Positions 45,692 through 64,000 of a stretch of 64,000 nt of DNA are shown here, piece by piece; the stretch's first letter is position 1; every line of letters begins with the position of its first letter. The notes below the pieces were generated by a model, which was not told the origin of the DNA, did not search any database, and worked only from the letters and a program-made list of their open reading frames with translations. A program made the translations under genes and the position numbers. This stretch comes from a virus, in IMG/VR virus record IMGVR_UViG_3300046484_000054, positions 1 through 64,000 of that record. The stretch is one strand, 5' to 3'.

Positions 45692-45786
45692 AAAATTTTC
45701 AATCGTTGTTTTTTGCTGCTAACGGCATCATTTGCCATGAATTTGCTTGAATCTAATGCCGGTTGGATTACATTGCAAGAACAATT

Positions 45787-48700: not shown

Positions 48701-49011
48701 AGGGCGTGGACAAACCGCACGGGTCGGTCGCACAGCGCGTGTGGCTCTGGAGGCGGCTGTTGGTTCGCAAAAGAATCCTAATATCAGCAACCAAATGTCC
48801 ACGCTTGGTTGCCACGTGCAAGATGCTGAAGCACGGCAGGGTCAGATGGACTTTGCCAACCAAAAGCCCATACAAACATGCGCTTGATTCAGCCACCTAC
48901 CCGCTCCTGAAGGAACTTTGGGATGAGTTGCAAACGAGCATCTGGGCCATCAGAGCACAGAAGAAAAGCCAGATGGACGGCGAAAGCAGTCTCGTGCTGG
49001 TTCACCATTGA
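45787..49011 (+). CDS. terL: terminase large subunit precursor containing an intein
   Basis: Walker A is reconstituted as GPKWSGK|T across the intein. Downstream come ATPase and nuclease-like segments (ICILCESIGAGDDSG, LIILADGNPSDEG, GWDTGGRNPS). The N-terminal ~100 aa is basic. Confidence 0.8.
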   Translation: MPTPKFSQRYPDETDDWRLEVQKAKDRGITDHDELNRIMSRVKTRAYIRNRKKTKLEKPTQFPAASPPMEKPIKVPKAAEFKFDFSPKQWLVLNTVRERCGHRKIIFVNGPKWSGKCISPDTIIYTADGFSTMSELGRADIDSFSPINKDVVSMSETGLDIGVSRADQFYNSGFGEAVIIKTGLGYELTCSQNHPIWCEHNGEIGYKTSEEIAGIVGCGGSVWLPLSRKHPSIRGRKNLTLEVSWTMKQDGQSIDASERIKRAVAGGAKTISAIKASARTANETIHKWLKNPIEPRRTVVEIDENMGYLLGLLTGDGCYTKKTIKGGRIGFTSADEEIVSFVGKMVSGFPHSRFKKLLKYDYCIQSAFFRALLKEIGMSGKYAQEKSIPNIIVKSPVPVIVAFLQGLFDTDGTVERAGSVVYCSASKVLAKQVQDILLGLGIRSSRIFKKNKCLGAWLVSTREEDDFRGKIGFRLARKQNRKPIRERRWKVSWAAYPPSLKGVLQKLYDSRKERGVGMLLRKIHKYAINPVLRGQRALSMKMIAPLAKFINCEQEPEFQSYWMQGKIWWDKVERCSATKSELVDLCVPSTHNFIGNGFINHNTWAALDSVIDYAWRVKDATICILCESIGAGDDSGIWTKLMKRIDTHIKANYGLEWWTEKGKKEHLGARQKGASKRIYAELKNMHGGKSYFELNSLKDEREVEQMFFNRYFSFIYWSELQHSRREETFTHIRQALRMETVAEDDLIILADGNPSDEGQRSWQYKLFFEFRTATDVSEIKKPLQKDLRLIQIFIEDNPYITPEKKLEIAADYADNPDLFARFVKGEWVDAVAGGVFTDVFLPNVHCIGDLKDKDPDILVPTDGCTELVTGWDTGGRNPSTHILEPIILMEDDKPLRCFQYIDELAYVDEDIAPSEFTMQFMEKMDFWEKAIGHDIIWRHWADSSALDFKESIAERTPADEIFATSNGRIILQGVDKPHGSVAQRVWLWRRLLVRKRILISATKCPRLVATCKMLKHGRVRWTLPTKSPYKHALDSATYPLLKELWDELQTSIWAIRAQKKSQMDGESSLVLVHH
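46135..47592 (+). mobile_element. 486-aa class-1 intein with LAGLIDADG homing-endonuclease domain, inserted in the terL P-loop
   Basis: Block A CISPDTIIYTADG directly after GPKWSGK; block B LTCSQNHPIW; LAGLIDADG motifs YLLGLLTGDGCY and FLQGLFDTDGTV; C-terminal VPSTHNFIGNGFINHN followed by the +1 Thr. Confidence 0.85.
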
Positions 49012-53953: not shown

Positions 53954-54982
53954 ATGGAGATTAAACCAGCAACACGTCAAGGGGTGAAGCCGCTTATTGG
54001 CATTTTCTCCGAATCAGGATGCGGTAAAACCATGTCATCGCTATTGCTCGCTCGCGGATTTGTCGGCGCGGCTGGCAAGATCGTCATGGTGGACACCGAA
54101 AGCGGGCGGGGAAGCCTTTACGCCGATGTCATTCCCGGCGGTTACGATGTCATCGAAATGCGAGAGCCGTTTTCTCCAGCGCGATACATAGAGGCCGTTC
54201 AAGAGGTTGAGAAATCGGGCGCGGGGATTCTTGTTATTGATTCCGCAAGCCATGAATGGGAGGGAATCGGCGGAGTCTTGGACATGGCGAACGAAAATGA
54301 AATAAGGACGCAGAAAACCGGACTTCACAACTGGAAACAACCAAAGCAGGAACACGCGAAGTTCATGCTGAAATTGCTTCAATCGTCGCTCCCGATTATT
54401 GTTTGCCTTCGCGCAAAGTTCAAGACCCGCCAAATCAAAGGAACGCAAGAACTCGCCGATGATGGAATTATCCGGCGCGACCAGATCGGGAAAACGGTCA
54501 TTGTAAAAGACGCCGAAACCGAGCCTATTCAAGACGGTAAGTTCATTTACGAAATGATGGCTCACGGCGAAATCATGCAAGACCATTCATTGCGATTGAC
54601 GAAATGCAGCCATCCTTCGTTGCGCGACTGTTTTCCGGTGAACAAGCCAATCGAAATCTGCCACGGCGAAGCCCTTGCCGCGTGGTGCGCCAGCGCGGGG
54701 TCGCCAGCGGGCGTTTCCAGCCCGGTGGCTACCACGACACCCCCTAAATCGTCTGGGGGCACGCTAGGCGAGAAGCAAAAGCTGGAATTGGAGCTTTGGA
54801 CAGTTTTGAAATCAATCAGAACGCCCGGCAAAAAGGGATTTTCGGAAGTAAATTCGTGGCTGTGGCGCGAGGAAATTCTTGATGCCGGAAAAGACCCGGC
54901 TGAAAACGTGGAAAGTCTGACGGCTGAAAAAATGCGCGAAGTTATCAAGGCCGCAAAAGCAAAACTTGGCCAGCTTGTATGA
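53954..54982 (+). CDS. Sak4-like (AAA_24/RecA-like) recombination ATPase
   Basis: Walker A GIFSESGCGKTMSS, Walker B ILVIDSASHEW; the size and neighbouring nuclease fit a phage recombination module. Confidence 0.7.
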   Translation: MEIKPATRQGVKPLIGIFSESGCGKTMSSLLLARGFVGAAGKIVMVDTESGRGSLYADVIPGGYDVIEMREPFSPARYIEAVQEVEKSGAGILVIDSASHEWEGIGGVLDMANENEIRTQKTGLHNWKQPKQEHAKFMLKLLQSSLPIIVCLRAKFKTRQIKGTQELADDGIIRRDQIGKTVIVKDAETEPIQDGKFIYEMMAHGEIMQDHSLRLTKCSHPSLRDCFPVNKPIEICHGEALAAWCASAGSPAGVSSPVATTTPPKSSGGTLGEKQKLELELWTVLKSIRTPGKKGFSEVNSWLWREEILDAGKDPAENVESLTAEKMREVIKAAKAKLGQLV

Positions 54983-55962
54983 TTGATTTTTCAAACTGCA
55001 AAATAGTTGGCGATGGCATTGACCATGACGCTTACGCCAAACAGCCGGACGGCGTGAAGCGCGGCGATGTTGCGTGGGTCATGTCCAGAGGCGAACTGAT
55101 GACATTTGCCAAGTGCCCGGCCAAGTGGATTGCTGGCGTTGAGGATGAGGACACGAAGGCTACGGCATGGGGCGACCTTGTTGATTCTCTTTTGCTGTCT
55201 CCCGCGAAGGCTGAAATTAAGTTCGCCGTCGCGCCAGCCGAATACGAGCCGGGCAAGCCGTGGAATTACAACGCCAAAGTTTGCAAGGCGTGGAAAGAGG
55301 AAAAAGCTTCCGCCGGAATGACGGTGACAACGGAAGCGGAAATGAAGAAGGCTTCAACCGCGCTCCAAGCCCTTCAAAAAAACAAGGACATCATGGAGCT
55401 TGTCGAGTGTTCCAAAACGCAAGTGATGGCGACCGGCGAATACCGCGACAAAGCGACCGGACTCAAAATCCCGCTGAAAATCCTTCTGGATTTAGTGCCG
55501 GATGTTGGAAATGCGCGCTTCGGAAAGTCTTTGGCCGATTTCAAGACGACCAAAAACGCGGCTATGTTTGAATTCGGACGCGACATTAACAATCATCACT
55601 ACGACGCGCAGGGCTGGCTATACAGCGCGATTTACAAGGCGGCGACGAAAGAGGATAAGGTTGACTGGCAAATCGCCGTCCAAGAGTCTGCCGAGCCATA
55701 CCACAGCGAGATTTACACGCTTTCCGATTCTGGTTTCATGTCCCAGACGGGCGAAACCAAAGTCTTGAAGGCGTTGCAACTTTACTGCTGGTGTTTGAAA
55801 AATAAAACGTGGCCGGGATATGCAATGACAGCGCGGGATCGTTACAATGGAATTGCCATCATCCAGCCGGAAGATTGGATGATAACCCGCTTGTCTGAAT
55901 TTTGCCCAATTCCACAAACCGAACAGCCCTTCACCGCCGACGCGAGCGACGTGCCAAGTTGA
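54979..55962 (+). CDS. PD-(D/E)xK (RecB/Cas4-like) exonuclease
   Basis: ILLDLVPD ... LADFKTTK ... HHYDAQGWLY (D, ExK-like and QxxxY motifs); ATGA overlap with the ATPase gene. Confidence 0.65.
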   Translation: MIDFSNCKIVGDGIDHDAYAKQPDGVKRGDVAWVMSRGELMTFAKCPAKWIAGVEDEDTKATAWGDLVDSLLLSPAKAEIKFAVAPAEYEPGKPWNYNAKVCKAWKEEKASAGMTVTTEAEMKKASTALQALQKNKDIMELVECSKTQVMATGEYRDKATGLKIPLKILLDLVPDVGNARFGKSLADFKTTKNAAMFEFGRDINNHHYDAQGWLYSAIYKAATKEDKVDWQIAVQESAEPYHSEIYTLSDSGFMSQTGETKVLKALQLYCWCLKNKTWPGYAMTARDRYNGIAIIQPEDWMITRLSEFCPIPQTEQPFTADASDVPS

Positions 55963-56069
55963 TCTACCGGAGCTATGCCGCGCCGGCGATAAACCAAAAA
56001 CGTAATATGCGGACTCAACCAAACCCAAGCGTGGCCGTTCCCGGCGTCGCGGATCAGCGACTGGTTCGG
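55962..56069 (+). repeat. attC-like element A1 (terminal; left core degenerate)
   Basis: Left ATCTACC; imperfect inner stem ATGCCGCG.. / CGTCGCGGAT; right CAGCGACTG-GTTCGGC. The loop and right arm are about 90 percent identical to A10. Confidence 0.5.
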
Positions 56070-56279
56070 CGAATTCGTCCGCATCGGAACACCATTCGAT
56101 TTAATTGCAGCGGCTATTTTCGAGACAGGATAACCAGACCGGACAACTGCTATAACTGCCTGCGTCGGGACGGCTATCCTCAAAACCTCGGCGGCGACGA
56201 GGCGTGTAAAAACTATTCGCCGAACGAATCAAGCTCAGCGACCCGGAAACGAGACGCTGGGCAAACCAAAGACTTATGA
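56007..56279 (+). CDS. cassette ORF, small Cys-containing protein (90 aa)
   Basis: ATG lies in the loop of A1 ([20 protein letters not shown]...) and the ORF reads through the A2 left arm. Weak protein-likeness. Confidence 0.4.
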   Translation: MRTQPNPSVAVPGVADQRLVRRIRPHRNTIRFNCSGYFRDRITRPDNCYNCLRRDGYPQNLGGDEACKNYSPNESSSATRKRDAGQTKDL

Positions 56280-56327
56280 AAAAAACAGAGACCGACAATC
56301 CGGGTTCGCTAAAGCGCGTTGTTATGC
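56219..56327 (+). repeat. attC-like element A2
   Basis: GCCGAAC ... AGCGA-CCCGG / CCGGG-T-TCGCT ... AAAGCGCGTT-GTTATGC. Confidence 0.8.
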
Positions 56328-56455
56328 TGCGGTGGTTGCGTTCGCGGCGAAAAAGGCTTTTGAAAATGCACGCCGCCGAAAAAGACCGGGGCGTAAAATT
56401 ATACATCGTCGGTCAAACAGACCTGATTGACATTCTAGTTGCAAAATATGAGTGA
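56276..56455 (+). CDS. cassette ORF (59 aa, below the track threshold)
   Basis: Hand-translated MKKTETDNPGSLKRVVMLRWLRSRRKRLLKMHAAEKDRGVKLYIVGQTDLIDILVAKYE. ATG in the A2 loop, ATGA-coupled to the upstream ORF. Confidence 0.45.
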   Translation: MKKTETDNPGSLKRVVMLRWLRSRRKRLLKMHAAEKDRGVKLYIVGQTDLIDILVAKYE

Positions 56456-56636
56456 ACCATCAGAAGCCAGAAAAGTGCTTGGCCCGTTCTTCTACATGAT
56501 GCGTAAGAGGGAAGAAAAATATCGGCTGGATGCGAGGCTGGCGAAAATAAAAGCCGACACAATTCGAGACGTGTATCTCGACCTTGACCAACGGCTCGCA
56601 CAGGAAGAAAATAAGCAGCATAACGTGCCGAACTGA
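56448..56636 (+). CDS. cassette ORF (62 aa)
   Basis: MSEPSEARKV...; 8-nt overlap with the previous ORF; stops in the A3 left arm (..HNVPN*). Confidence 0.5.
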   Translation: MSEPSEARKVLGPFFYMMRKREEKYRLDARLAKIKADTIRDVYLDLDQRLAQEENKQHNVPN

Positions 56637-56728
56637 GGCACGCCGAACCGATGACATCCGAACTCCTAAAACTCGAAGCGAATGACGGCAAGCGCCAATC
56701 GGCGTTGCCTCCAGTGAGTTTGTTCGGC
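56618..56728 (+). repeat. attC-like element A3
   Basis: GCATAAC ... GAGGCA-CGCCGA / TCGGCG-T-TGCCTC ... CAGTGAGTTT-GTTCGGC. Confidence 0.8.
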
Positions 56729-56752
56729 TGGCGCGACTGAAAATATACGAAT

Positions 56753-56983
56753 ATGACAAACATCGAAGAACGAATCGCAGAACTCACAGCACACCGCGCT
56801 TGTGGAAACCAAGAGCAAGACACGCAGAACGGAAAACTCGCCGGATATTGTGTCGTGTGCCAAGTGCCGTGGCCGTGCGAAATCGCAAAACCTCGTAGCT
56901 TCTGGGAGCAGAACGCGAGCGAAAGTCGAGCCATCGCGGAACTTGCAAAACCGTCCACCGCGCAGCCGAACGTGCGGAGCTAA
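56753..56983 (+). CDS. cassette ORF, Cys-rich (76 aa)
   Basis: Starts 25 nt after the A3 right core; CGNQ...CVVCQVPWPC; stops in the A4 left arm (..PNVRS*). Confidence 0.55.
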   Translation: MTNIEERIAELTAHRACGNQEQDTQNGKLAGYCVVCQVPWPCEIAKPRSFWEQNASESRAIAELAKPSTAQPNVRS

Positions 56984-57074
56984 GACGCTCCGCGATTAAA
57001 TTTATGCAAACAAAATCGAAACCAACACTCAAGCGGGAAAACAGCCGGAGTCGTTCTTCAGCGACTTGTTCGGC
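56965..57074 (+). repeat. attC-like element A4
   Basis: GCCGAAC ... AAGA-CG-CTCCG / CGGAG-T-CG-T-TCTT ... CAGCGACTT-GTTCGGC. Confidence 0.7.
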
Positions 57075-57231
57075 GCAAATCGAGGCGCTGTATAAAGCAG
57101 TCCAGAAATACGTCGAAAGCGGCGGCGGCAAACTTGTCGTCATCGGCGGAATAGCAATCCAAGAATGGCCGACAGACAATCCGATGGTGTTCCATGCGGT
57201 TGTTAGGCGCACGGCTACGAAACCAAAATGA
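57004..57231 (+). CDS. cassette ORF (75 aa)
   Basis: ATG in the A4 loop; reads across the A4 right arm and the partial A5. Confidence 0.5.
   Translation: MQTKSKPTLKRENSRSRSSATCSAQIEALYKAVQKYVESGGGKLVVIGGIAIQEWPTDNPMVFHAVVRRTATKPK
57181..57208 (+). repeat. attC-like element A5 (right half only)
   Basis: ..GGTGTTCC-ATGCGGTT-GTTAGGC with no convincing left arm. Its right core plus flank still matches the left core of A6 over 11 nt. Confidence 0.4.
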
Positions 57232-57407
57232 AAGACATCCAAATAGCACTCGACAACCTCGAACAACTGCCCGCGTCCGAACGGGCTAAAACGCTGATGA
57301 CCATCGTTCGCAACCTCGTGACCCAAGCTGATGATAACTACATCGTCACTTGGGAAGAACTCGAATCAACCATCGAAAGCGCCTGCCGTGATGTCAAGTG
57401 CGCCTAA
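57228..57407 (+). CDS. cassette ORF (59 aa, below the track threshold)
   Basis: Hand-translated MKDIQIALDNLEQLPASERAKTLMTIVRNLVTQADDNYIVTWEELESTIESACRDVKCA. The TAA stop lies inside the A6 left core GCC-TAA-C. Confidence 0.45.
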   Translation: MKDIQIALDNLEQLPASERAKTLMTIVRNLVTQADDNYIVTWEELESTIESACRDVKCA

Positions 57408-57535
57408 CAGTGAGGTCAGCAATGGAGACGCCAATGAGAAATAAACGCGCAAATAAATGTAAGCACAGATTTTCAAGAATCTACTGCCCGATTTGTAAGG
57501 GCAAGTCTCCATTGGCTGCACCGGCTTTGTTAGCA
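57402..57535 (+). repeat. attC-like element A6
   Basis: GCCTAAC ... CAGC-AATGGAGAC / GTCTCCATT-G-GCTG ... CACCGGCTTT-GTTAGCA (the bulged base is G). Confidence 0.75.
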
Positions 57536-57730
57536 GTCGTGGAGGGGGCGCTTACAATAATCAACGAGGCTGAGGGATGCTTCATACTTGGGAAAATCTG
57601 CAATGGAAAGGCTCTTCTCGGAGAGGGGAAGGCCATGCTCGAAAAATTAGTGGAGGGGTATGAGTCCACGCCTGCTAACGCCGTGCGTGAGCCATCCCGG
57701 ACTCGCGACGTAAAACAACCAGAAACCTGA
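57422..57730 (+). CDS. cassette ORF (102 aa) with CxH...CxxC knuckle
   Basis: ATG in the A6 loop; CKHRFSRIYCPIC; ends in the A7 loop. Confidence 0.5.
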   Translation: METPMRNKRANKCKHRFSRIYCPICKGKSPLAAPALLAVVEGALTIINEAEGCFILGKICNGKALLGEGKAMLEKLVEGYESTPANAVREPSRTRDVKQPET

Positions 57731-57781
57731 AAGAATAAAGTGCAGCGGCCAACCGGGATTGGTTCGACGCACTTGTTAGGC
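57673..57781 (+). repeat. attC-like element A7
   Basis: TGCTAAC ... GAGCCA-TCCCGG / CCGGGA-T-TGGTTC ... GACGCACTT-GTTAGGC. Confidence 0.8.
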
Positions 57782-57789
57782 GACGACTT

Positions 57790-57987
57790 ATGGACAAAAA
57801 CAAATATCCGTGGAATGAGGCTTGGGATTCTCTCAAGCGAACAATCGAAGAAGACTGCGATGCGCTAAAGGCACTCGTGGACAATGAGGACTCTGCCTGC
57901 AATGCGAGAAACCTGCGCCGCGAAAGAATGATGGCGATGGAATACACGCTACACCTGATGAGTGAACTTGAAAGGTGGGAGTGGTGA
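57790..57987 (+). CDS. cassette ORF (65 aa)
   Basis: ATG 9 nt after the A7 right core; helical acidic protein. Confidence 0.5.
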   Translation: MDKNKYPWNEAWDSLKRTIEEDCDALKALVDNEDSACNARNLRRERMMAMEYTLHLMSELERWEW

Positions 57988-57991
57988 AGTC

Positions 57992-58102
57992 GCCTAACGT
58001 AGAAAGCTGAGCCACCGCCGATTATGAATACTCAAACTCCAGAAACCCGAAGCGAACTCGCCTGCAGGCGTAACGGCGGTTGGCTCCGGCGACTTGTTAG
58101 GT
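57992..58102 (+). repeat. attC-like element A8
   Basis: GCCTAAC-GTAGAAAGCT-GAGCCA-CCGCCG / CGGCGG-T-TGGCTC-CGGCGACTT-GTTAGGT. Confidence 0.85.
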
Positions 58103-58158
58103 GTCTGCTTTTCTACACGAAATGCGCTTCGCTTCGGTTTCAAATTGGTGTTGCTAAA

Positions 58159-58353
58159 TTAGTTAATGCGAGACTTAAAATCACGATTCTCTGCCTCCAA
58201 TTTCGCAACTCTTACTTTCAATCCCCCGGACAATTTCTTTTCTTCGGTGAGAAGGTGCTTGAGTTGCATGACCTCTCTCTCACGTTCCTCGTCGGGGTTG
58301 GAAATCGTGTTCGACCATTTTTTCAATTGTTTCAATTTTTGTTCGTTGTTCAT
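58159..58353 (-). CDS. cassette ORF, coiled-coil protein (64 aa); strand uncertain
   Basis: The minus-strand product MNNEQKLKQLKKW...LEAENRDFKSRIN looks like a real coiled coil. The overlapping + ORF 58024..58410 is L/F-rich like an antisense shadow, although it starts in the A8 loop. Confidence 0.4.
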   Translation of the reverse strand: MNNEQKLKQLKKWSNTISNPDEEREREVMQLKHLLTEEKKLSGGLKVRVAKLEAENRDFKSRIN

Positions 58354-58358
58354 AAGAC

Positions 58359-58485
58359 ACCTAACGAATCAAGCTCAGGCGCGGCGTCTGAGCGAAAGGA
58401 CAATCAATGAAAAGCAAATCTGGAAAATCACAGCGAGCGCGAAATGGCAACGGCAGAAGCCGTTTCCTGAAGCGCGTTGTTAGCA
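58359..58485 (+). repeat. attC-like element A9
   Basis: ACCTAAC-GAATCAAGCT-CAGG-CG-CGGC / GCCG-TTT-CCTG-AAGCGCGTT-GTTAGCA. Confidence 0.7.
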
Positions 58486-58739
58486 GGCTGCAACGAACTA
58501 ACCAGGCCATCGAAGCACTCATCGCGCTGGCCCTTCGTGTTTCCTCGCAGCCGATCAGTGAATCGGAAATGGAATACTTCTGCAAGAAATACTCCGCCGA
58601 CGGAAGTGCGCTTTCAAAAGCTGATGCGGCTGCGCTAAAAAAAGCCCGGCCAGCACTCGTCCAAAAAATCAAAGACATCATGGCGGGAAAGCCTGCTAAC
58701 GGGGAGCTATCCCGCGACGGCGATGAACCCAAAACGTAA
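58407..58739 (+). CDS. cassette ORF (110 aa)
   Basis: ATG in the A9 loop; protein-like helical sequence; ends in the A10 loop. Confidence 0.55.
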
Positions 58740-58804
58740 TATGCGGACTCAACCAAACTCAAGTGGAGGCGTTCCCGGCGTCGCGGATCAGCGACTTGTT
58801 GGGC
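58694..58804 (+). repeat. attC-like element A10
   Basis: TGCTAAC ... ATCC-C-GCGACG / CGTCGC-GGAT ... CAGCGACTT-GTTGGGC (bulge on the 5' arm). Confidence 0.7.
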
Positions 58805-59214
58805 CGCACGGTCCTAAAAAGAGATACTGGGTGACTCCACCGGAAATGATGGCCAGATTAAATGCAGAGTTCCGATTCGATTTTGACCCATGCCCACACC
58901 CACGCCCAGAAGGGTTTGATGGCATCGCCGTCGAATGGGGAAAGCGCAACTGGGTGAATCCACCGTGGACCGGCGGAGTGGGATTATGGAGAACGAAGGC
59001 ACTCGAAGAACGCGAACGAGGAAAAATGAGTGTGCTTCTGCTTCCTCTCTATCAGGTTCGAGTGATTGCAACACTAGGCGAGGCCGGCGCGGAGATACGC
59101 TATGCGGGCGCTCCCGTGTGGCTGGCCATCGAGGACGGAACGCCCAACCCAGTGCCGCCATCGAGTAGGCAACCGTGCCTCCTCCTGATATTGCGGCCCA
59201 ACGAGACGAGATAA
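58741..59214 (+). CDS. phage Dam-type DNA N6-adenine methyltransferase (157 aa)
   Basis: [23 protein letters not shown] ... [10 protein letters not shown] ... resembles the phage N6A MTase family with an NPPW catalytic motif. ATG in the A10 loop. Confidence 0.7.
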
Positions 59215-59377
59215 GCGACCCCGAAAGGACAAGAATTATGCGATGTGATAAATGTAAACAAGAACTGATTGGGCAAGATTGGCATTGGTCGCCCCAAGAT
59301 GGCTACCGGCATAATTCTTGTCCTGTAGGGGCGACCGAAGGGAGACCCGCAGGGTTCGCTTCATCGGCTGGTTCGCC
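59196..59377 (+). repeat. attC-like element A11 (long loop)
   Basis: GCCCAAC ... AGCGA-CCC / GGG-T-TCGCT ... TCATCGGCTG-GTTCGCC; loop of about 130 nt. Confidence 0.65.
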
Positions 59378-59738
59378 TTCCGGCGCGCCGAATACGGATA
59401 AAAGCAAATGCGGCGGGGGTGCGTCCGATGTCTCCAAAACGTCGCACGTCAATGCGGAAGGTGAAACAGACGATTTATCTCGTCTCGTTCGCCTTCCGGT
59501 AAGCGAACTGGCTGCGCTCGTAGAAAAATGGCGGAACGAAAGCTTGGAGCAATTTGAATCCTCTAGGCATTGTCACGAACGACAAGAGTATGCGAGCGAG
59601 CAGTGGTTTATAGGTGCTTCAAACACCAAATCTTTTTGTGCGCTTGAATTGCTTGAAACCTTAGCAGCCAGCGCCCCCCAGCGCAGCGGGGGCGAGCGGC
59701 TGGAGGCGAACGCCGCGCATAAGCCGTGCGGCGATTAA
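59238..59738 (+). CDS. cassette ORF (166 aa), N-terminal CxxC...C
   Basis: MRCDKCKQELIG...; AAGGA upstream; ATG inside the long A11 loop. Confidence 0.55.
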   Translation: MRCDKCKQELIGQDWHWSPQDGYRHNSCPVGATEGRPAGFASSAGSPSGAPNTDKSKCGGGASDVSKTSHVNAEGETDDLSRLVRLPVSELAALVEKWRNESLEQFESSRHCHERQEYASEQWFIGASNTKSFCALELLETLAASAPQRSGGERLEANAAHKPCGD

Positions 59739-59813
59739 GAATATGGAAACTATTTTGCAACCAACTTCTGAGCGTGGGAATACCCCGCATCGGTCTTCAT
59801 GCGCTTGTTCGGC
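59705..59813 (+). repeat. attC-like element A12
   Basis: GGCGAAC ... AAG-CCG-TGCGG / CCGCA-T-CGG-T-CTT ... CATGCGCTT-GTTCGGC. Confidence 0.7.
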
Positions 59814-60303
59814 TTCTGTGCTGGACGTGTGCTGCGGGAGTCGAATGTTCTGGTTCGATAAAGCTGACCCTCGCGCCCTATTCGTGGATAAACGCCGCGA
59901 AACCCTGATAGACAACACCGGCCCGAAACCCGCCAGCATCGTCGTGAATCCTGATGTGCTCGCAAATTTCAAATCTCTGCCGTTTCCAGACTGCACTTTT
60001 CCGCTGGTCGTGTTCGACCCGCCGCATACTTGGTGCGGGCCGAATGGTAGGACGATAAAGAAATACGGAAGCCTGCCGCTCGACTGGCGGAATGAAATAT
60101 CGGACGGCTTCCGCGAATGCTTCCGCGTGCTGTGTCCGCTTGGGACTCTCGTTTTCAAATGGAATGAACATCGGGTGAAGCTGACAACTGTTTTGTCACT
60201 CACCGACCATAAGCCGCTGTTTGGGCAGAGGGTCGGAAACACTCGAACTCACTGGATCGTGTATCAGAAGCCGAACGATCAAGCTGACCTACCGCCGCGA
60301 TGA
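59743..60303 (+). CDS. SAM-dependent methyltransferase, probably DNA N6-A/N4-C
   Basis: Motif I VLDVCCGS, then motif IV-like VVFDPPH; ATG in the A12 loop. Confidence 0.6.
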   Translation: METILQPTSERGNTPHRSSCACSASVLDVCCGSRMFWFDKADPRALFVDKRRETLIDNTGPKPASIVVNPDVLANFKSLPFPDCTFPLVVFDPPHTWCGPNGRTIKKYGSLPLDWRNEISDGFRECFRVLCPLGTLVFKWNEHRVKLTTVLSLTDHKPLFGQRVGNTRTHWIVYQKPNDQADLPPR

Positions 60304-60377
60304 ACTCGACGCTTGATATTGTGACCGACGCCCAACCTGTGGGAACTCCGGCGGTTAGGTCCGGCGCGTTGTTAGCA
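60270..60377 (+). repeat. attC-like element A13
   Basis: GCCGAAC-GATCAAGCTG-ACCTA-CCGCC / GGCGG-T-TAGGT-CCGGCGCGTT-GTTAGCA. Confidence 0.8.
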
Positions 60378-60387
60378 CCCAAGACCA

Positions 60388-60642
60388 ATGACTATGAAAA
60401 ATAAATTCTGCATAAACTGCAAATGGCAAGACGGCATCTACTGCCGGTCGCCAAAGATTCCAACTGAATCAAATCCCGTCACCGGCGAATCAAAGCCGTG
60501 GCTGCAATGCTGCGAGTCGCACCGAACCGGATGCTTCACAAGCTGGATCGGATGCCGACTGAATGGGCTGTGTGGCAAGGAAGGGCGCTGGTTCGAGGCT
60601 AAAACCCAAAGCGCCGCCTTGGGTGCTAACGTGCGGAGCTGA
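60388..60642 (+). CDS. cassette ORF, Cys-rich (84 aa)
   Basis: FCINCKWQDGIYC...CCESH...C...C...C; starts 11 nt after the A13 right core; ends ..ANVRS* in A14. Confidence 0.5.
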   Translation: MTMKNKFCINCKWQDGIYCRSPKIPTESNPVTGESKPWLQCCESHRTGCFTSWIGCRLNGLCGKEGRWFEAKTQSAALGANVRS

Positions 60643-60732
60643 ACCACCGCGAAATTATGACAAACGAAAACCAGAAACCTTCTCGGCCAACCTGCGGCGA
60701 CAATCGCGGTTGGTTCCGGCGACTGGTTAGGC
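60624..60732 (+). repeat. attC-like element A14
   Basis: TGCTAAC-GTGCGGAGCT-GAACCA-CCGCGA / TCGCGG-T-TGGTTC-CGGCGACTG-GTTAGGC. GAACCA/TGGTTC is a compensatory change relative to GAGCCA/TGGCTC. Confidence 0.85.
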
Positions 60733-60995
60733 CACACGGCTTCATCGCGCCAAGAGGCTACGCAGAACCGGACGACGAATATCGCAGCCGCTTTAATTTT
60801 GTCTGGTGGTTCTGGCTGCCAAGAATCCACACGCAACGACCCGACACGCAGAACCCGCGAGTAATCCGAATCATCTGGCTGTGCTTTGCAGCAGGACTGG
60901 ACATCTGGGGCGATGAGTCTCGCAAGGTGTGGCCTAACGAATCAAGCTCACCGATGCTGCGCCGAAAAACCAAAAGCCATGAACAAAGCCTCTGA
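60657..60995 (+). CDS. cassette ORF (112 aa), Trp-rich hydrophobic segment
   Basis: ATG in the A14 loop; FNFVWWFWLPRIH...IIWLCFAAGLDIWG. Confidence 0.45.
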   Translation: MTNENQKPSRPTCGDNRGWFRRLVRPHGFIAPRGYAEPDDEYRSRFNFVWWFWLPRIHTQRPDTQNPRVIRIIWLCFAAGLDIWGDESRKVWPNESSSPMLRRKTKSHEQSL

Positions 60996-61063
60996 CAATC
61001 GAAAAACGCTGGACGCCGAAAACTGCGGGAGTAAGCAGCATTCGGTGCAGCGATTTGTTAGAC
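60932..61063 (+). repeat. attC-like element A15
   Basis: GCCTAAC-GAATCAAGCT-CACCGA-TGCTGC / GCAGCA-T-TCGGTG-CAGCGATTT-GTTAGAC. The stem sequence is entirely different but the architecture is identical. Confidence 0.85.
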
Positions 61064-61281
61064 GGCTTTGTGTGATATGTGGAGCAAAAGTCCGCAATCA
61101 AAATCCGAAGACAAACACATGCGACCCGATCTGCACGCGAGCCAAGCACGCCAACCGGACGCGGCAGGAACAAATCGAGCATGAAATGGCCGTGGATGAA
61201 TACAATGACTGCATGGCCGGTCACGCTCACCTGTGGTATGAAACCGACGAACCGCGAGTAAAACGAAAGATACGAATATGA
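60979..61281 (+). CDS. cassette ORF, zinc-ribbon-like (100 aa)
   Basis: ATG in the A15 loop; CVICGAKV...NTCDPIC. Confidence 0.5.
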   Translation: MNKASDNRKTLDAENCGSKQHSVQRFVRRLCVICGAKVRNQNPKTNTCDPICTRAKHANRTRQEQIEHEMAVDEYNDCMAGHAHLWYETDEPRVKRKIRI

Positions 61282-61541
61282 GCCAATGCACTAAATGCGA
61301 GACAAACTTTGTCGGCACGCCGGAAAATCCTCCGGTGCCGGGACTTTGCAAGTATTGCGAGATCGAAATCTTGCGAAAGGGGATTGATGCGGTCTGCCAA
61401 CTGATGGCACAGAGCCAAGGAGTAACCGGACTGCATCTGAACGGAGACGTTGCAACGTGGGATGATTTGAGGACGGGCGGCAAGATGGAAGAATGGCTTG
61501 TCGAGTTTGACGATGCGGTAAAAATACTACCACCAATATGA
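61278..61541 (+). CDS. cassette ORF (87 aa), CxxC...CxxC
   Basis: ATGA-coupled; CTKCETNF...CKYCE. Confidence 0.5.
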   Translation: MSQCTKCETNFVGTPENPPVPGLCKYCEIEILRKGIDAVCQLMAQSQGVTGLHLNGDVATWDDLRTGGKMEEWLVEFDDAVKILPPI

Positions 61542-61723
61542 GCAACATCAATCTTCACACCTGCGAGAAAGCCGCACCCGGCTGGCAAAATAAGTGCAAA
61601 CCTTGCGCCGAATGTGAGAGCGAAATAAGACGCCGGAAAATGGCGGATGACTTTTGCCGCTCAGAAACCGTGGCAGACTTTGAAAAGCGCACGAACTTGA
61701 AGCCGTCTAACGTAGAAAGCTGA
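61538..61723 (+). CDS. cassette ORF (61 aa), Cys-rich
   Basis: ATGA-coupled; ends ..PSNVES* in A16. Confidence 0.5.
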   Translation: MSNINLHTCEKAAPGWQNKCKPCAECESEIRRRKMADDFCRSETVADFEKRTNLKPSNVES

Positions 61724-61814
61724 GCCACCACGAACTATGGACACCCAACAACCAGCGACCCTCGCGGAGTCACGGAAAGCGCCAATCGTGGTTGGCTCCG
61801 GCGACTTGTTAGGC
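61705..61814 (+). repeat. attC-like element A16
   Basis: GTCTAAC-GTAGAAAGCT-GAGCCA-CCACGA / TCGTGG-T-TGGCTC-CGGCGACTT-GTTAGGC. Confidence 0.85.
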
Positions 61815-62042
61815 ATCGTCAAAAGCAAAAAGACTCTGCCTCCATACCACATTCCGACGTATAAAAAAATACTGCCTCATGTTCATAATCGCGGAAATTT
61901 CGAGTGGAAGTGTCCAAAATGCGGGGCGGTAGTAATACGGCACCACAAGCGGAAGCCCAAAGGATGTCCTAAATGTATGGATCGCCGAAACATGATTCGC
62001 GTGGGATGGAATGGCGGCAAGATGCCTAACGACCGGAGCTGA
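61737..62042 (+). CDS. cassette ORF, zinc-ribbon (101 aa)
   Basis: ATG in the A16 loop; CPKCGAVV...CPKC; ends ..PNDRS* in A17. Confidence 0.5.
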   Translation: MDTQQPATLAESRKAPIVVGSGDLLGIVKSKKTLPPYHIPTYKKILPHVHNRGNFEWKCPKCGAVVIRHHKRKPKGCPKCMDRRNMIRVGWNGGKMPNDRS

Positions 62043-62122
62043 GCCATGACGGAACTAAATCTCACACCCGCGAAGCGGAACTGCGACGGCCAACCGTCAT
62101 TGGCTCCGGCGACTTGTTGGGC
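62024..62122 (+). repeat. attC-like element A17
   Basis: GCCTAAC-GACCGGAGCT-GAGCCA-TGACGG / CCGTCA-T-TGGCTC-CGGCGACTT-GTTGGGC. Confidence 0.85.
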
Positions 62123-62909
62123 GGAAATTTCGTGGATCATCGAAAATATAACGAAAGAATCCAGCCTGCTCGAACTCGCCGAAGCTGTGAAGAAAGCAGG
62201 TAGCCAACTCTTTGAAATCAATGGTGACTACACCGCGCAGACAATCAAAGAACTGCGGCGATATGCCGCTGGCAAAACCGTAATCTTCGACGGCTCAATC
62301 AACATGGCCGAACTCGTGACGCGAGACGTGCCAACCATCCGCGTCATCGGAACGTCAGAAAACTATCTGTGCAGCCGCTACTATCCGAAATGTGATGGAC
62401 TGATGTTCAATGATAAATACTTGCTGCTGCCGATGCGAGAGATTGAAGCGGCGGCAACGCTGGCTGTGGACGGATGCGTGTTCGTGCGTCCTGATGGCGG
62501 TCAGAAACAATTCCAAGCCGCGCTCGTGGAGGTCGGAGAACTCGCCGCGTTGAAAAGACATGGCGAAATGATGGTGCTGGTGTCACCGCCGAAGAACATA
62601 ACGGGCGAATGGCGATGCGTGTGTGACGCCTGCGGAATCGTGGCGGTGTCGAGCTACCGAATCAAAGGTCAACCAATTCGTGAACCCTCTGCGCCAAGTG
62701 GTGCGCTCCAAATGTGCGAGAATGTCGCCACGAGATACCTGCCTGACCCGCTGTTCGTTGTAGATGTGTGTGCCGACACTGACGGGAACTTATGGCTGAT
62801 GGAACTGAACCAATTTACGGGGGCTGGACTGTATGCCTGCGACAAGGCCGCTATCGTGCGCGCCGTGGAACGTGTGGCGTCCGCCTTTCCGCCCAACGTA
62901 GAAAGCTGA
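62046..62909 (+). CDS. ATP-grasp (DUF4343-like) protein (287 aa)
   Basis: FVRPDGGQKQFQAALV ... GEWRCVC ... VVDVCADTDGNLWLMELNQFTGAGLY resembles the phage ATP-grasp family. The only in-frame start is the ATG in the A17 loop. Confidence 0.6.
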   Translation: MTELNLTPAKRNCDGQPSLAPATCWAEISWIIENITKESSLLELAEAVKKAGSQLFEINGDYTAQTIKELRRYAAGKTVIFDGSINMAELVTRDVPTIRVIGTSENYLCSRYYPKCDGLMFNDKYLLLPMREIEAAATLAVDGCVFVRPDGGQKQFQAALVEVGELAALKRHGEMMVLVSPPKNITGEWRCVCDACGIVAVSSYRIKGQPIREPSAPSGALQMCENVATRYLPDPLFVVDVCADTDGNLWLMELNQFTGAGLYACDKAAIVRAVERVASAFPPNVES

Positions 62910-62989
62910 GCCACCGCCGACCTGCGACGCGAACCGCGATAGCGGAACGGACAGCGCCAACGGCGGTTGGCTCCGGCGACTGGTTAGGC
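62891..62989 (+). repeat. attC-like element A18
   Basis: GCCCAAC-GTAGAAAGCT-GAGCCA-CCGCCG / CGGCGG-T-TGGCTC-CGGCGACTG-GTTAGGC. Confidence 0.85.
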
Positions 62990-63015
62990 TGCATTTCGTG
63001 AACTGACATAAAAAT

Positions 63016-63222
63016 ATGACGACTCAAAATAATATCGGCACCAACACGCTGCTGGCTCGGCGAATCCGAGAAATCATGCCGCCAAAAGTTGCCGACGACT
63101 TTATGAACTCGCCGCGATACGGCGAACTCCAAGCGGCGGCTGACTCCGGCTTGCCGTTCTGGATCGGAAAAACTGAAACTGGATCATGGGACTTTGCCAT
63201 AAATGACCGCCATGCAGCCTAA
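63016..63222 (+). CDS. cassette ORF (68 aa)
   Basis: Starts 27 nt after the A18 right core; the TAA stop lies inside the A19 left core. Confidence 0.5.
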   Translation: MTTQNNIGTNTLLARRIREIMPPKVADDFMNSPRYGELQAAADSGLPFWIGKTETGSWDFAINDRHAA

Positions 63223-63316
63223 CATTCGGAGCTGAGCCATGCGCGACAAAACGACATCCAACCGCGAAGCGGAACTGACGTGGCCATCGCGCATTGGCTC
63301 CGGCGACTGGTTAGGA
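63217..63316 (+). repeat. attC-like element A19
   Basis: GCCTAAC-ATTCGGAGCT-GAGCCA-TGCGCGA / TCGCGCA-T-TGGCTC-CGGCGACTG-GTTAGGA. Confidence 0.85.
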
Positions 63317-63340
63317 CACTGGTCGAACTGAACTAAATCT

Positions 63341-63571
63341 ATGAAAAAACTCAAATGCAAATGTGAACTCTGCACGAAATGGTCGCCGCTCCATCGGCGC
63401 ATCATGGCAAAGCTGCGTGGCAAAGATAAAAAACTCTTCGATGAATTTTTGATGATGGTCTGGAATGACAGCGACGACCTCGGCGCGGCAAATGCAAAGC
63501 TGGCCGGTGAATGGCCGGGCTGGGAATGGATGCCTGAAGTCATAAAACAAAAAATGGGCGAAGTGGCCTAA
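63341..63571 (+). CDS. cassette ORF (76 aa)
   Basis: MKKLKCKCELC...; the TAA stop lies inside the A20 left core. Confidence 0.5.
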   Translation: MKKLKCKCELCTKWSPLHRRIMAKLRGKDKKLFDEFLMMVWNDSDDLGAANAKLAGEWPGWEWMPEVIKQKMGEVA

Positions 63572-63664
63572 CGCCTCGAACTCAGCCACCGGCGACCGAG
63601 GCGCGTCGCCCGCGAAGGCGGACGGCAAGGCGTAACGCCGGTTGGCTGAAGTGAGTTGTTAGCA
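63566..63664 (+). repeat. attC-like element A20
   Basis: GCCTAAC-GCCTCGAACT-CAGCCA-CCGGCG / CGCCGG-T-TGGCTG-AAGTGAGTT-GTTAGCA. CAGCCA/TGGCTG is compensatory. Confidence 0.8.
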
Positions 63665-63678
63665 GGCGAATTTTAGAT

Positions 63679-63945
63679 ATGAAAACACGACAACAAAACA
63701 TCACGGAACTGAAAGCCGCCATCGTAAAAACCGAGGCTGCTATCACAACGACAAAGACGGCTCTGATGGCAACGGAGGCGCGACTGGAACGCCAGCGGGC
63801 GCATCTGAACACCCAACTCATGCTGAATAAGTTCGACCAGATAGACCAACTGCGCCAGCAAATCAGCGACATCATCGCCGCGAACAAATGGACAGTCACA
63901 ACAGATGGACACATCAACGAACTCGAACAACAGGACAAACAATGA
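63679..63945 (+). CDS. cassette ORF, coiled-coil (88 aa)
   Basis: Starts 15 nt after the A20 right core. Confidence 0.5.
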   Translation: MKTRQQNITELKAAIVKTEAAITTTKTALMATEARLERQRAHLNTQLMLNKFDQIDQLRQQISDIIAANKWTVTTDGHINELEQQDKQ

Positions 63946-64000
63946 TAACCGACCTATCACGCGGAAAGCCTCTGCCGGAAGGCAAGAGCAAAACCTTCAA
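63942..64000 (+). CDS. partial ORF running off the window
   Basis: ATGA-coupled start MITDLSRGKPLPEGKSKTF... Confidence 0.3.
   Translation, partial: MITDLSRGKPLPEGKSKTF

Follow-up and report, generated by a model that had tools for sequence, protein, structure and literature searches.

Start codons within attC sites in an integrase-less attC cluster of a phage, with putatively reversed cassettes

In the aadA1 attC site of plasmid R100, the bottom strand carries a bulged T 16 nt 5' of GTT and is also the strand on which intI1 is coded. Bottom strands of attC sites show a G:T bias (1.24 vs 0.39 per site; Nivina et al., 2016, PMC5027507). The window analysed here, the whole stretch of 64,000 nt from IMG/VR virus record IMGVR_UViG_3300046484_000054, contains a cluster of 20 elements with RYYYAAC left cores and GTTRRRY right cores. 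The cluster spans 55.95-63.66 kb, in the early-gene region of the phage, and one more element lies just beyond the window end (Table 1).

In 17 of 18 pairs in the window, the right core of one element and the left core of the next are exactly complementary. Over 71 such pairs the match is perfect in 49, with a mean of 0.48 mismatches, while the cores of a single element have 1.54 mismatches, against 1.51 for random pairs. This complementarity between neighbours is the cassette signature. The stems covary (one pair is CG in 71, GC in 59 and AT in 10 of 155 unique elements) and the hairpins are strong (-27 to -66 kcal/mol). A search of the elements against Rfam gave no match at the gathering score. 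The first-pass annotation had described extrahelical T and G on the 3' arm of 15 of 19 elements; a bulged T 16-17 nt 5' of GTT was identified on this arm in 13 of 19, and a G in one more, but the second bulged base is mostly C, not G. The loops, which had been called variable, belong to conserved families common to several phages and are not cassette-specific. Near-identical attCs occur ahead of unrelated ORFs, as with A16 in contigs L014 and L021 and with A1 and A10, which are paralogues (89% identity over 55969-56070). We identify the repeated elements as genuine integron attC sites, of the same family as those in chromosomal integrons of the presumed hosts.

Table 1. Elements (A1 to A21) and ORFs of the attC cluster. 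Positions are those of the window except for A21; ORFs that start within an element begin at their ATG.
Feature	Position	Strand	Remarks
A1, first attC-like element	55953..56070	+	loop and right arm, no left core
ORF from A1 loop, 90 aa	56007..56279	+	
A2 attC	56219..56327	+	GCCGAAC ... GTTATGC
ORF from A2 loop, 59 aa	56276..56455	+	ATG overlaps upstream stop (ATGA)
A3 attC	56618..56728	+	left core GCATAAC, exact complement of A2 right core
mini-ORF in A3, 29 aa	56651..56740	+	ends 12 nt ahead of ATG 56753
A4 attC	56965..57074	+	
ORF from A4 loop, 75 aa	57004..57231	+	
A5 remnant	57187..57208	+	right arm alone, no left core; core GTTAGGC complements A6 left core
A6 attC	57402..57535	+	ATG 57422 within 5' stem
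ORF from A6 5' stem, 102 aa	57422..57730	+	
A7 attC	57673..57781	+	no loop ATG; type also in L012, L013, L020
A8 attC	57992..58102	+	
coiled-coil ORF, 64 aa	58159..58353	-	between A8 and A9
A9 attC	58359..58485	+	
ORF from A9 loop, 110 aa	58407..58739	+	
A10 attC	58694..58804	+	A1 paralogue
Dam-like DNA methyltransferase	58741..59214	+	28-aa leader encoded by A10; no in-frame start past core
A11 attC	59196..59377	+	long loop
ORF from A11 loop, 166 aa	59238..59738	+	
A12 attC	59705..59813	+	
DNA methyltransferase (phrog_954) from A12 loop	59743..60303	+	homology from residue 22 onward
A13 attC	60270..60377	+	
mini-ORF in A13, 34 aa	60300..60404	+	overlaps ATG 60388
A14 attC	60624..60732	+	
ORF from A14 loop, 112 aa	60657..60995	+	
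A15 attC	60932..61063	+	opens cassette common to L014 at ~99% identity
ORF from A15 loop, 100 aa	60979..61281	+	two more ORFs follow in its cassette
A16 attC	61705..61814	+	type also in L014, L021
zinc-ribbon ORF from A16 loop, 101 aa	61737..62042	+	
A17 attC	62024..62122	+	ATG 62046 within 5' stem
ATP-grasp (R2K) protein	62046..62909	+	29-aa leader encoded by A17
A18 attC	62891..62989	+	no loop ATG; type frequent in other phage contigs
A19 attC	63217..63316	+	
mini-ORF in A19, 30 aa	63239..63331	+	ends 9 nt ahead of ATG 63341
A20 attC	63566..63664	+	
A21, further element	L146 970-1059		directly past window end

Copies of the right-arm motif were located in 24 stretches of IMG/VR and at least 120 stretches from bacterial MAG contigs; almost all of the latter belong to Verrucomicrobiota, and the densest arrays hold 14 copies in 8 kb. 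Arrays of this attC family adjoin IntI in Verrucomicrobiota genomes and also in contigs of related phages. Seventeen host arrays are flanked by full-length homologues of IntI (sharing 44-54% identity with IntI1); for one host IntI, the TIGR02249 'integron integrase' model gives 464.7 bits, above the cut-off of 265. The phage probably infects Verrucomicrobiota. A tblastn search for IntI gave no match in the window (best E 0.26), and none was found in the 7.5 kb that close the phage circle. The phage array, lacking IntI, is a CALIN (an attC cluster lacking an integrase), and the mobility of its cassettes must thus depend on an enzyme supplied in trans.

Four independent lines of evidence (bulges, G:T excess, intI position and host breakpoints) concur in identifying the + strand as the recombinogenic bottom strand, as was first proposed from the window sequence alone. 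The bulged T of the + strand has the same position as that of the aadA1 bottom strand. G:T mispairs number 114 on the + strand and 23 on the - strand, 88 of the 114 coming from one column. In all 19 integrase-holding loci, the motif strand also encodes intI, which lies downstream of the array with its 5' end toward it; the motif strand thus corresponds to the bottom strand of R100, where the bottom strand likewise matches the intI coding strand. A point against the assignment is that the + strand forms the more stable fold in just 17 of 60 viral elements. Cassettes common to different host arrays are identical from one left core to the AAC of the next left core, and for these shared cassettes conservation is higher in the upstream element than in the downstream element in 17 of 23 pairs (10 of 12 clusters).

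With the + strand as bottom strand, integrase crossover is predicted at AA/C of the left core (the slash marks the crossover). The first-pass annotation had also favoured this point, and had named breakpoints in related genomes as the check; host arrays do break at left cores. Among phages there is one case, a block of ~99% identity between the window and L014 that extends over 60934-61711, up to and including the AAC of A16, after which the next 6 nt differ. This sole phage-to-phage cassette fits AA/C; G/TT of the right core is also compatible on that case alone, and the breakpoint requires one coincidence under either model. The AA/C assignment rests mainly on the host arrays and attC geometry.

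Gene polarity differs between hosts and phages. Of the host bodies, 235 have their longer open frame on the motif-minus strand and 50 have it on the plus strand, and top-strand ORFs of 228 host cassettes begin a median of 13 nt past the core, often ending at the TAA of R''. In viral loci, by contrast, the longer open frame is on the plus strand in 26 and on the minus strand in 10, and AT skew and domain matches place the window genes on the + strand. With phage genes on the bottom strand, a phage cassette would consist of C + attC + ORF(s) + RYYYAA. The coiled-coil ORF between A8 and A9 is the sole cassette with the canonical polarity of host genes.

Twelve ATGs had been assigned to element loops. 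All lie between the left and right cores of an element (A1 itself having no left core), 10 of them in the loop and those of A6 and A17 in the 5' stem. The ORFs that they open have 59-287 codons and each reads through the right core, the G of which is in phase 0 in six elements (A1, A2, A9, A10, A14, A15), phase 1 in four (A4, A11, A12, A17) and phase 2 in two (A6, A16). The arm is thus translated in three frames, as had been reported, and the peptides listed for it (GWFRRLVR, VGSGDLLG, LAPATCW, SSATCSA and FLKRVVS) are all correct. Together with the covarying stems, this reading in three phases agrees with the earlier view that conservation is at the nucleic-acid level. Position 4 of the core is non-A in all four phase-1 elements, avoiding xGT TAG, because the ORF is open. 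For seven elements (A3, A5, A7, A13, A18, A19, A20) we confirmed that ORFs begin 9-27 nt past the right core, and the three mini-ORFs described there are present.

In 12 of 20 elements the sole plausible start codon of the gene is within the attC (A12 has an alternative, an in-frame GTG 4 nt past the core), and the right arm is translated as a leader of 20-30 aa. For the ORFs of 112, 100 and 101 aa, the start picked by public gene callers is the loop ATG. The ORFs mostly run 12-57 nt past AA/C, and their stop codons fall within the left arm of the attC that follows; the distance from stop to next ATG is -17 to +23 nt. Thus, of the cassette predicted by the first-pass annotation, the retention of its own start codon stands, but the stop codon usually lies outside.

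Within this attC family, phage elements are enriched in loop ATGs over host elements (p = 3e-7 to 2e-14). A loop ATG joined to 40 codons or more was identified in 11 of 16 window elements vs 37 of 335 host elements (Fisher p = 3e-7), and any read-through loop ATG in 13 of 16 vs 68 of 335 (p = 7e-7). The trait is family-wide in phages (43 of 60 elements). The Dam-like methyltransferase and the ATP-grasp protein have no start past the core, as was claimed, whereas their free-standing homologues have one. Free-standing Dam-like methyltransferases (129-134 aa) have their own ATG 2-9 codons ahead of the YW motif; no such ATG is present in the cassette forms (window, P0087-P0109, L152, L153, L157), whose leaders cross the right arm in the same phase. 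ATP-grasp homologues begin M.WIIEN; their cassette forms carry no start past the core, and phase 1 is kept across diverged attCs in the three cassette forms with nucleotide data. Where proteins are 75-80% identical, divergence is far greater in the leaders and the upstream attCs than in the gene bodies, and a lasting association of an attC with its ORF is therefore no more than putative.

We consider it probable that this is an integrase-less attC cluster with the + strand as bottom strand, in which a phage cassette is an attC followed by a reversed ORF that starts in its own attC. Rightward transcription of the whole array would yield a single polycistronic mRNA or a few of them. A ribosome finishing one gene would melt the left arm of the RNA hairpin and make the next start accessible, and translation of the right arm would then keep the hairpin open; in three further elements, a loop mini-ORF ends at or just ahead of the real start. 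In this way some 20 cassettes could all be expressed without polarity caused by structured, untranslated attC sites. Such a translation relay, with every mobile unit retaining its own start codon, would be possible only under the reversed polarity. As the phage encodes no IntI, cassettes would be exchanged via IntI of the host or of co-infecting relatives.

An array built by integrase in an ancestor and now immobile, with loop starts and read-through tails arising as secondary compaction of a fixed operon, is unlikely but carries some weight. The lack of IntI in the phage, the missing left core of A1, the remnant A5 and the fact that most ORFs take their stop codon from the attC that follows are all consistent with a fossil, but core complementarity is still perfect in 17 of 18 junctions, L014 has one cassette at ~99% identity in other surroundings, relatives have IntI, hosts have IntI and the same attC family, and loop ATGs are family-wide in phages. 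Canonical polarity would make the + strand the attC top strand, put crossover at G/TT of the right core and assign each attC to the upstream ORF, the loop ATGs being spurious or chance N-terminal extensions gained after cassettes became immobile. The ORFs do end in or just past the left core, as canonical cassette ORFs end at R'', homology of the ATP-grasp body begins exactly past the right core, and similarity of the identical attCs that precede unrelated ORF bodies (A1/A10; A16) ends there. However, homogeneous attCs before unrelated ORFs are also the rule in host arrays and are thus no sign of right-core crossover. Given the 3'-arm bulges, the G:T mispairs, the intI coding strand, the left-core breakpoints of shared host cassettes and the host ORFs on the other strand, we regard canonical polarity as very improbable.

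Two readings without integron recombination carry still less weight. The arms could be linkers for homologous recombination, with modules shuffled between phages by an AAA_24 (Sak4-like) ATPase and a PDDEXK nuclease. The array begins directly past the genes for these two proteins, 22-nt arms are identical across many phages and blocks of similarity stop at the arms, but linkers would not yield complementarity between successive elements with random mismatch within each, and leave the covarying stems, fixed bulges and IntI linkage unexplained. This is highly improbable as a full account, and homologous recombination may contribute to attC homogenisation. Mere convergence of phage RNA signals (processing sites, terminators or translational operators) on an attC-like form is the least probable reading: the elements are strong hairpins on the coding strand between genes and contain start codons, but the same family forms arrays beside host integron integrases, with genes on the opposite strand, core complementarity across cassettes has no RNA rationale, and Rfam offers no counterpart at the gathering score. 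An RNA role alongside the DNA role belongs to the favoured explanation and does not compete with it.

We found no report in the integron literature of reversed genes starting inside their own attC. In host cassettes the genes are on the top strand, with the attC 3' of the gene, whereas the phage genes are on the bottom strand, with the attC 5' of the gene; thus, most phage genes start within their own hairpin.

The window is a phage genome that encodes a large terminase subunit, large tail-like proteins, an AAA_24 ATPase and a PDDEXK nuclease. An intein with a LAGLIDADG homing-endonuclease domain splits the terminase gene. An overlapping contig (L146) bridges window positions 63218-64000 to positions 1-2440 via 7.5 kb located outside the window. 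Thus, the phage genome is circular or circularly permuted. Twenty repeated elements (A1 to A20) lie between and within small + strand ORFs, and a 21st occurs immediately beyond the window end. After the last of these, L146 encodes small ORFs and then DNA polymerase III beta (the sliding clamp). Two other contigs (L147 and L148) are nearly identical to L146; the differences, located downstream of the array, are insertions or replacements of small genes, and no attC was detected at these sites. Blastn searches of GenBank phages with the array gave no match, IMG/VR single-protein locus searches with the PDDEXK and ATP-grasp proteins identified no close phage relatives, and 17 of the 20 cassette ORFs are without a match in PHROGs.

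Coordinates of the features discussed, with bit scores against the NCBIfam integron integrase profile TIGR02249 (cut-off 265 bits)
Feature	Sequence	Coordinates	Strand	Remarks
Large terminase subunit with intein	window	45763-49011	+	Pfam: LAGLIDADG_3 E 1e-16, Intein_splicing E 2e-7, Terminase_3 weak
AAA_24 ATPase	window	53954-54982		directly precedes PDDEXK nuclease gene
PDDEXK nuclease	window	54979-55962		array begins directly after
Elements A1 to A20	window	~55950 to 63664	+
A1	window	55969-56070	+	89% identical to A10
A5	window	57187-57208	+	right-arm-only remnant
ORF containing A5	window	57004-57231
A8 left arm	window	57992-58010		19 nt
ORF overlying the coiled-coil ORF	window	58024-58410	+	ends in ATGA overlap with next start
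64-aa coiled-coil ORF	window	58159-58353	-	between A8 and A9; starts 5 nt after top-strand core GTTAGGT
A10	window	58703-58804	+
Cassette shared with L014	window	60934-61711		~99% identity
A16 left arm	window	61705-61723		19 nt
ORF with a weak homologue in L049	window	61737-62042
Weak homologue of ORF 61737-62042	host locus L049	5975-6244 (motif-strand coordinates)		starts inside attC loop
Small ORFs, then sliding clamp gene	L146	784-8288		outside window, after last attC
attC before methyltransferase homologue	L157	upstream of 2501		~150-nt loop
IntI, host example	L086			464.7 bits
IntI, phage	L153	633-3380		266.7 bits
IntI, phage	L009	5006-5983		263.8 bits, below cut-off
IntI, phage	L152	1030-2546		253.6 bits, below cut-off
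IntI, phage	L021	1836-2825 (motif-strand coordinates)		225.9 bits, below cut-off

The elements have the structure of integron attC sites. Both cores (left, RYYYAAC; right, GTTRRRY) are present at the element ends in 18 of 20 cases, the left core being absent from A1 and A5. The right-arm motif, used as a query, matched 24 stretches in IMG/VR contigs and at least 120 in bacterial genome contigs, nearly all of the latter from Verrucomicrobiota (Verrucomicrobiae, Limisphaerales, Pedosphaera and subdivision 3), where copies are often densely arrayed, with as many as 14 per 8 kb. Some motif-carrying MAGs have been assigned to Bifidobacteriaceae, delta proteobacterium, Acidobacteriaceae or Saccharimonadales, off-group names that look like the result of faulty binning. 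The stems show strong covariation in a set of 155 unique elements (2051 Watson-Crick cells versus 137 other mismatches), and several stem pairs occur as three or four pair types (e.g., CG 71, GC 59, AT 10). No match to the window was found in Rfam at the gathering score.

Between adjacent elements, the right core of the first and the left core of the second are perfectly reverse-complementary in 49 of 71 pairs (17 of 18 within the window), whereas the two cores of a single element mismatch at the level of random pairs. Complementarity of this kind, with boundaries located inside the cores, is the classical signature of integron cassettes. Judged from the sequences, it excludes both a purely RNA-level element and a linker for homologous recombination. 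Complementarity between neighbors often reaches 10 bp in host loci (e.g., L026, L033 and L049), beyond the 7-bp cores, for example GTTAGGCCAC ... GTGGCCTAAC and GTTAGGCATC ... GATGCCTAAC. A crude search for AAC...GTT pairs flanked by complementary sequence gave too much noise to be useful.

Two elements are incomplete. A1, which has no left core, adjoins the stop codon that ends the PDDEXK nuclease gene, thus a truncated site opens the array; A1 and A10 place the same 20-aa leader on two unrelated proteins. The core of A5 matches the left core of A6, which suggests that a deletion fused two cassettes.

Four independent lines of evidence all mark the + strand of the window as the recombinogenic bottom strand, the assignment suggested in the first-pass annotation. 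On the + strand, the 3' arm bears two bulges, a T at 16 nt and a C at 9-10 nt on the 5' side of GTT; an internal loop and the R box come next. For reference we used the attC of aadA1, verified as 100% identical to plasmid R100, in which aadA1 and the attC top strand are on one strand and intI1 is on the other. This site has an extra C and A on the top-strand 5' arm, and its bottom-strand bulged T is at the same distance from GTT. Minimum-free-energy folding recovers the bulged T in 13 of 19 window elements, and the second extrahelical base, previously given as G, is mostly C. G:T mispairs number 114 on the + strand and 23 on the other (88 of the 114 come from one column), and a bias toward bottom strands is reported for attC sites (1.24 vs. 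0.39 per site; PMC5027507). In 19 of 19 loci that hold IntI, the array is upstream of intI and no element lies on the far side of the gene; intI is on the strand bearing the right-arm motif (hereafter the motif strand, + in the window), its 5' end toward the array. In R100 the strand coding for intI1 is the bottom strand. Finally, where the same cassette is present in two host arrays, identity extends from the left core of its element to the AAC of the next left core. Fold stability was rejected as a strand criterion, with the + strand more stable in 223 of 333 host elements and in only 17 of 60 viral elements.

The strand assignment and the host breakpoints bear directly on where cassettes are exchanged. 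In host arrays the element upstream of a shared cassette is as conserved as the gene (0.94-1.00), compared with 0.57-0.95 for the downstream element, and the upstream element is the more conserved one in 17 of 23 informative pairs (10 of 12 clusters). With the + strand as bottom strand and host identity ending at AAC, crossover is predicted at AA|C on the motif strand, which matches the prediction from the integrase mechanism, cleavage within 5'-AAC-3' of the bottom strand (PMC5027507). Near-identical attCs are found ahead of unrelated genes (A1 and A10, and the A16 type), but this is also the rule in host arrays and thus provides no evidence for crossover at the right core.

Only one cassette is common to two phages, the window and the viral locus L014, in which it has different neighbors. 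The 6 nt after the AAC of A16 differ, which fits AA|C. Whole attCs form conserved families, so that this comparison requires one coincidence under either crossover model. Reading it as breakpoints at both cores was withdrawn, as whole attCs are conserved across unrelated cassettes.

Host cassettes have the canonical layout, with the ORF on the top strand. The longer open frame of host inter-element bodies is on the top strand in 235 cases and on the motif strand in 50; 228 top-strand ORFs have their start codon at a median distance of 13 nt past the core, and many end at the TAA of R''. In viral contigs this polarity is inverted (26 on the motif strand vs. 10 opposite). AT skew, domain matches (Dam-like methyltransferase, second DNA methyltransferase and ATP-grasp enzyme) and public gene calls place the window genes on the + strand, hence on the bottom strand of their attCs, except for the 64-aa coiled-coil ORF. 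With bottom-strand genes and crossover at AA|C, each attC would be at the 5' end of its own gene, and the phage cassette is predicted to comprise C, attC, ORF(s) and RYYYAA. The composition proposed earlier, with each gene retaining its own start, follows from strand and polarity together.

The coiled-coil cassette appears to be the one cassette of host-type polarity in an otherwise reversed array and may have been captured from a host. No homologue of its product was identified in the host loci examined or in PHROGs. The + strand ORF that overlies it resembles antisense noise. Conversely, about 17% of host cassettes (50 of 295 bodies, L026-L145) have their longer open frame on the bottom strand, as in the phage, and the weak host homologue of one window ORF, in L049, also starts inside an attC loop.

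All 12 ATGs assigned to element interiors in the first-pass annotation are present between the cores, and open ORFs of 59-287 codons that read through the right core. Ten are in the loop as described; those of A6 and A17 instead sit in the 5' stem. The right arm is indeed read in all three frames, with the core in phase 0 in six elements, phase 1 in four and phase 2 in two, and the peptides given for the conserved arm are correct, as are three mini-ORFs and seven ORFs that start 9-27 nt after the core. An ATG inside the loop is fused to at least 40 codons in 11 of 16 window elements, compared with 37 of 335 unique host elements of this family (Fisher p = 3e-7), well above chance expectation; in other viral contigs the count is 23 of 60. 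The contexts of loop ATGs (AATATG, AATTATG) are like those of starts after the core, and neither set has an obvious Shine-Dalgarno sequence.

The claim that only the in-site starts are plausible holds for the Dam-like methyltransferase and the ATP-grasp protein. In A12, a GTG in frame follows the core by 4 nt. Free-standing Dam-like methyltransferases are 129-134 aa long and have their own ATG 2-9 codons before the YW motif; those found by profile scans served as the control for the missing start codon. The cassette forms (window, P0087-P0109, L152, L153 and L157) have no ATG near this motif. Instead, they have a leader of at least 25-35 aa through the right arm, in the same phase, and most methyltransferase matches in the profile scans align to the query only from residue 26-29 onward. 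Scans of IMG/VR and JGI metagenomes with the methyltransferase profile found the cassette form only in L157, almost all others being free-standing. Distant homologues of the ATP-grasp protein begin M.WIIEN, the cassette forms lack a start codon after the core, and the three forms with nucleotide data hold phase 1 across the core despite diverged attCs. The match of the second methyltransferase to phrog_954 starts at residue 22, directly past the right arm.

Co-inheritance of attC and ORF could not be drawn from protein data, as the leaders are not recognizably homologous among homologues that are 75-80% identical; poor conservation is expected of a passenger peptide. Exact-protein look-ups of the 157-aa and 186-aa methyltransferases returned no record, presumably due to other starts having been picked by gene callers. 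The attC that precedes the methyltransferase homologue in L157 encodes a leader with two Cys-x-x-Cys motifs in its long loop, thus loops can gain coding insertions.

Most ORFs cross AA|C and end within the left arm of the attC that comes next. The stop codon is 12 nt past the C in seven of them (AGC TGA or AGC TAA), at the TAA of the core in three, and 27-57 nt further in others. Thus, methyltransferase and ATP-grasp homologues are conserved to ..PN, encoded by the left core, and then have unrelated tails. A mobile cassette would keep its start codon and usually borrow its stop from the conserved left arm of the attC that follows. Reversed polarity is the only arrangement that puts the start codon inside the site and yet in the same mobile unit as the gene. 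The left arms of A8 and A16, G[CT]CTAACGTAGAAAGCTGA, have stops in all three frames (TAA, TAG and TGA), so that an ORF continuing in from the cassette before is always terminated; in the host variant seen most often (GAAAAAAGCTGA), only two frames have stops.

Stops are -17 to +23 nt from the next ATG, with the exception of A1 (44 nt), and the mini-ORFs finish at or just before the real starts. We propose that the array is transcribed rightwards and that ribosomes terminating in a left arm would block formation of the RNA hairpin, making the next ATG accessible. Translation of the right arm could then keep the hairpin open, with the result that all cassettes would be expressed. Such a relay fits published effects, as given in PMC11511950, in which attC structure and cassette translation shape downstream expression and small ORFs in attC can help (citing Jacquier et al., 2009).

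With about 21 attC sites and no IntI homologue detected by tblastn in the window or the rest of the phage circle, the array is a CALIN (a cluster of attC sites without integrase). It is not a complete integron, given that intI is absent from this phage genome. Thus, cassette exchange must rely on IntI in trans, and hosts and related phages do encode it. Using IntI1 as the tblastn query, we identified full-length homologues with 44-54% identity beside 17 host arrays, and homologues with 35-38% identity in viral loci L009 and L021. Against TIGR02249, only one of the four phage integrases scores above the cut-off, but for all four, as for the host example, no other family comes close to integron integrase. 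The intI genes of L152 and L153 come directly after the array and share a strand with its cassette genes. The L152 intI start codon lies in an ATGA overlap with the stop of the final cassette ORF, and only ~35 nt separate this intI from the last AA|C junction. We predict that IntI of the host or of a related phage, acting in trans, would exchange the cassettes.

One possible reading of these observations, which we put forward tentatively and at somewhat less than even odds, is that phages of Verrucomicrobiota run a mirror-image integron. It would combine the attC family and IntI chemistry of the host with genes on the recombinogenic strand, start codons in attC, a translation relay and insulated gene pools; in some relatives a divergent IntI of their own is encoded at the array end. 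In integrons as known from bacteria, each promoterless gene is followed by its attC, and good expression is confined to the first few cassettes. The phage lineage pairs the same sites with the opposite gene order, and its array of about 20 cassettes is predicted to be fully translated. If the mirror-image reading is correct, each cassette brings a start codon in its own attC and a relay could express the whole array. Phage and host gene pools would be functionally insulated though shuffled by the same machinery, as a cassette captured across the phage/host divide would land antisense to local transcription and be silent. The attC would be selected at once as recombination substrate, mRNA element and coding sequence in any of three frames.

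An active array would let phages use integron recombination on their own accessory genes, shuffling them. The cargo (two DNA methyltransferases, an ATP-grasp enzyme and many ORFans) may include counter-defense genes. Host and phage provide a concrete pair of attC families and integrases with which strand choice, cassette genesis and expression become testable. Annotation tools that assume the order ORF then attC will mis-assign such cassettes. Our literature search found reports of phage CALINs, attC strand selectivity and effects on translation, and no arrays of bottom-strand genes with starts in attC.

The system shares with sedentary chromosomal integrons (e.g., the VCRs of Vibrio cholerae) the RYYYAAC and GTTRRRY cores with boundaries within them, an imperfect hairpin with canonically spaced extrahelical bases, an unpaired central spacer and a variable loop, attC homogeneity within a lineage and, in hosts, IntI beside the arrays. 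Unlike these integrons, the phage attC precedes its gene, holds the start codon and is nearly entirely translated, since the phage genes are on the bottom strand, and the integrase is absent from this phage genome. In Treponema-type integrons, intI precedes the array and has the same direction as the cassettes, with canonical attC-gene polarity. The related phage contigs likewise have co-directional intI and cassette genes, but their array precedes intI, with the intI 5' end facing it as in classical integrons, and it is the genes, relative to attC, that are flipped. Reverse-orientation cassettes are known from chromosomal integrons (e.g., toxin-antitoxin cassettes with their own promoters; see also PMC13108822), where they are isolated within canonical arrays. 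The phage cassettes share with them a gene on the bottom strand, yet nearly the whole phage array is reversed and apparently co-transcribed, and in relatives it is co-directional with intI.

Small ORFs inside recombination sites also have precedents. ORF-11 of attI1 is one that aids translation of the next cassette. Those in attC are thought to open the hairpin for the next gene (Jacquier et al., 2009, as cited in PMC11511950). The three mini-ORFs that end at or just before a start resemble them in layout, but the in-site ORFs of that source are occasional and on the top strand, whereas here they are systematic, on the bottom strand and, in 12 elements, fused to the gene. Finally, attC sites in a phage are not new in themselves: the available text of Qi et al. 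(2023; PMC9892861) reports 17 CALINs, defined by two or more attC sites, from both virulent and temperate phages, with polarity as in bacteria and sites that bacterial IntI can recombine. Integrase-less attC clusters and DNA methyltransferase cargo are common to those CALINs and to ours, which differs from them as described there in its ~21 sites, its attC family shared with the host, its reversed polarity and its start codons within the sites.
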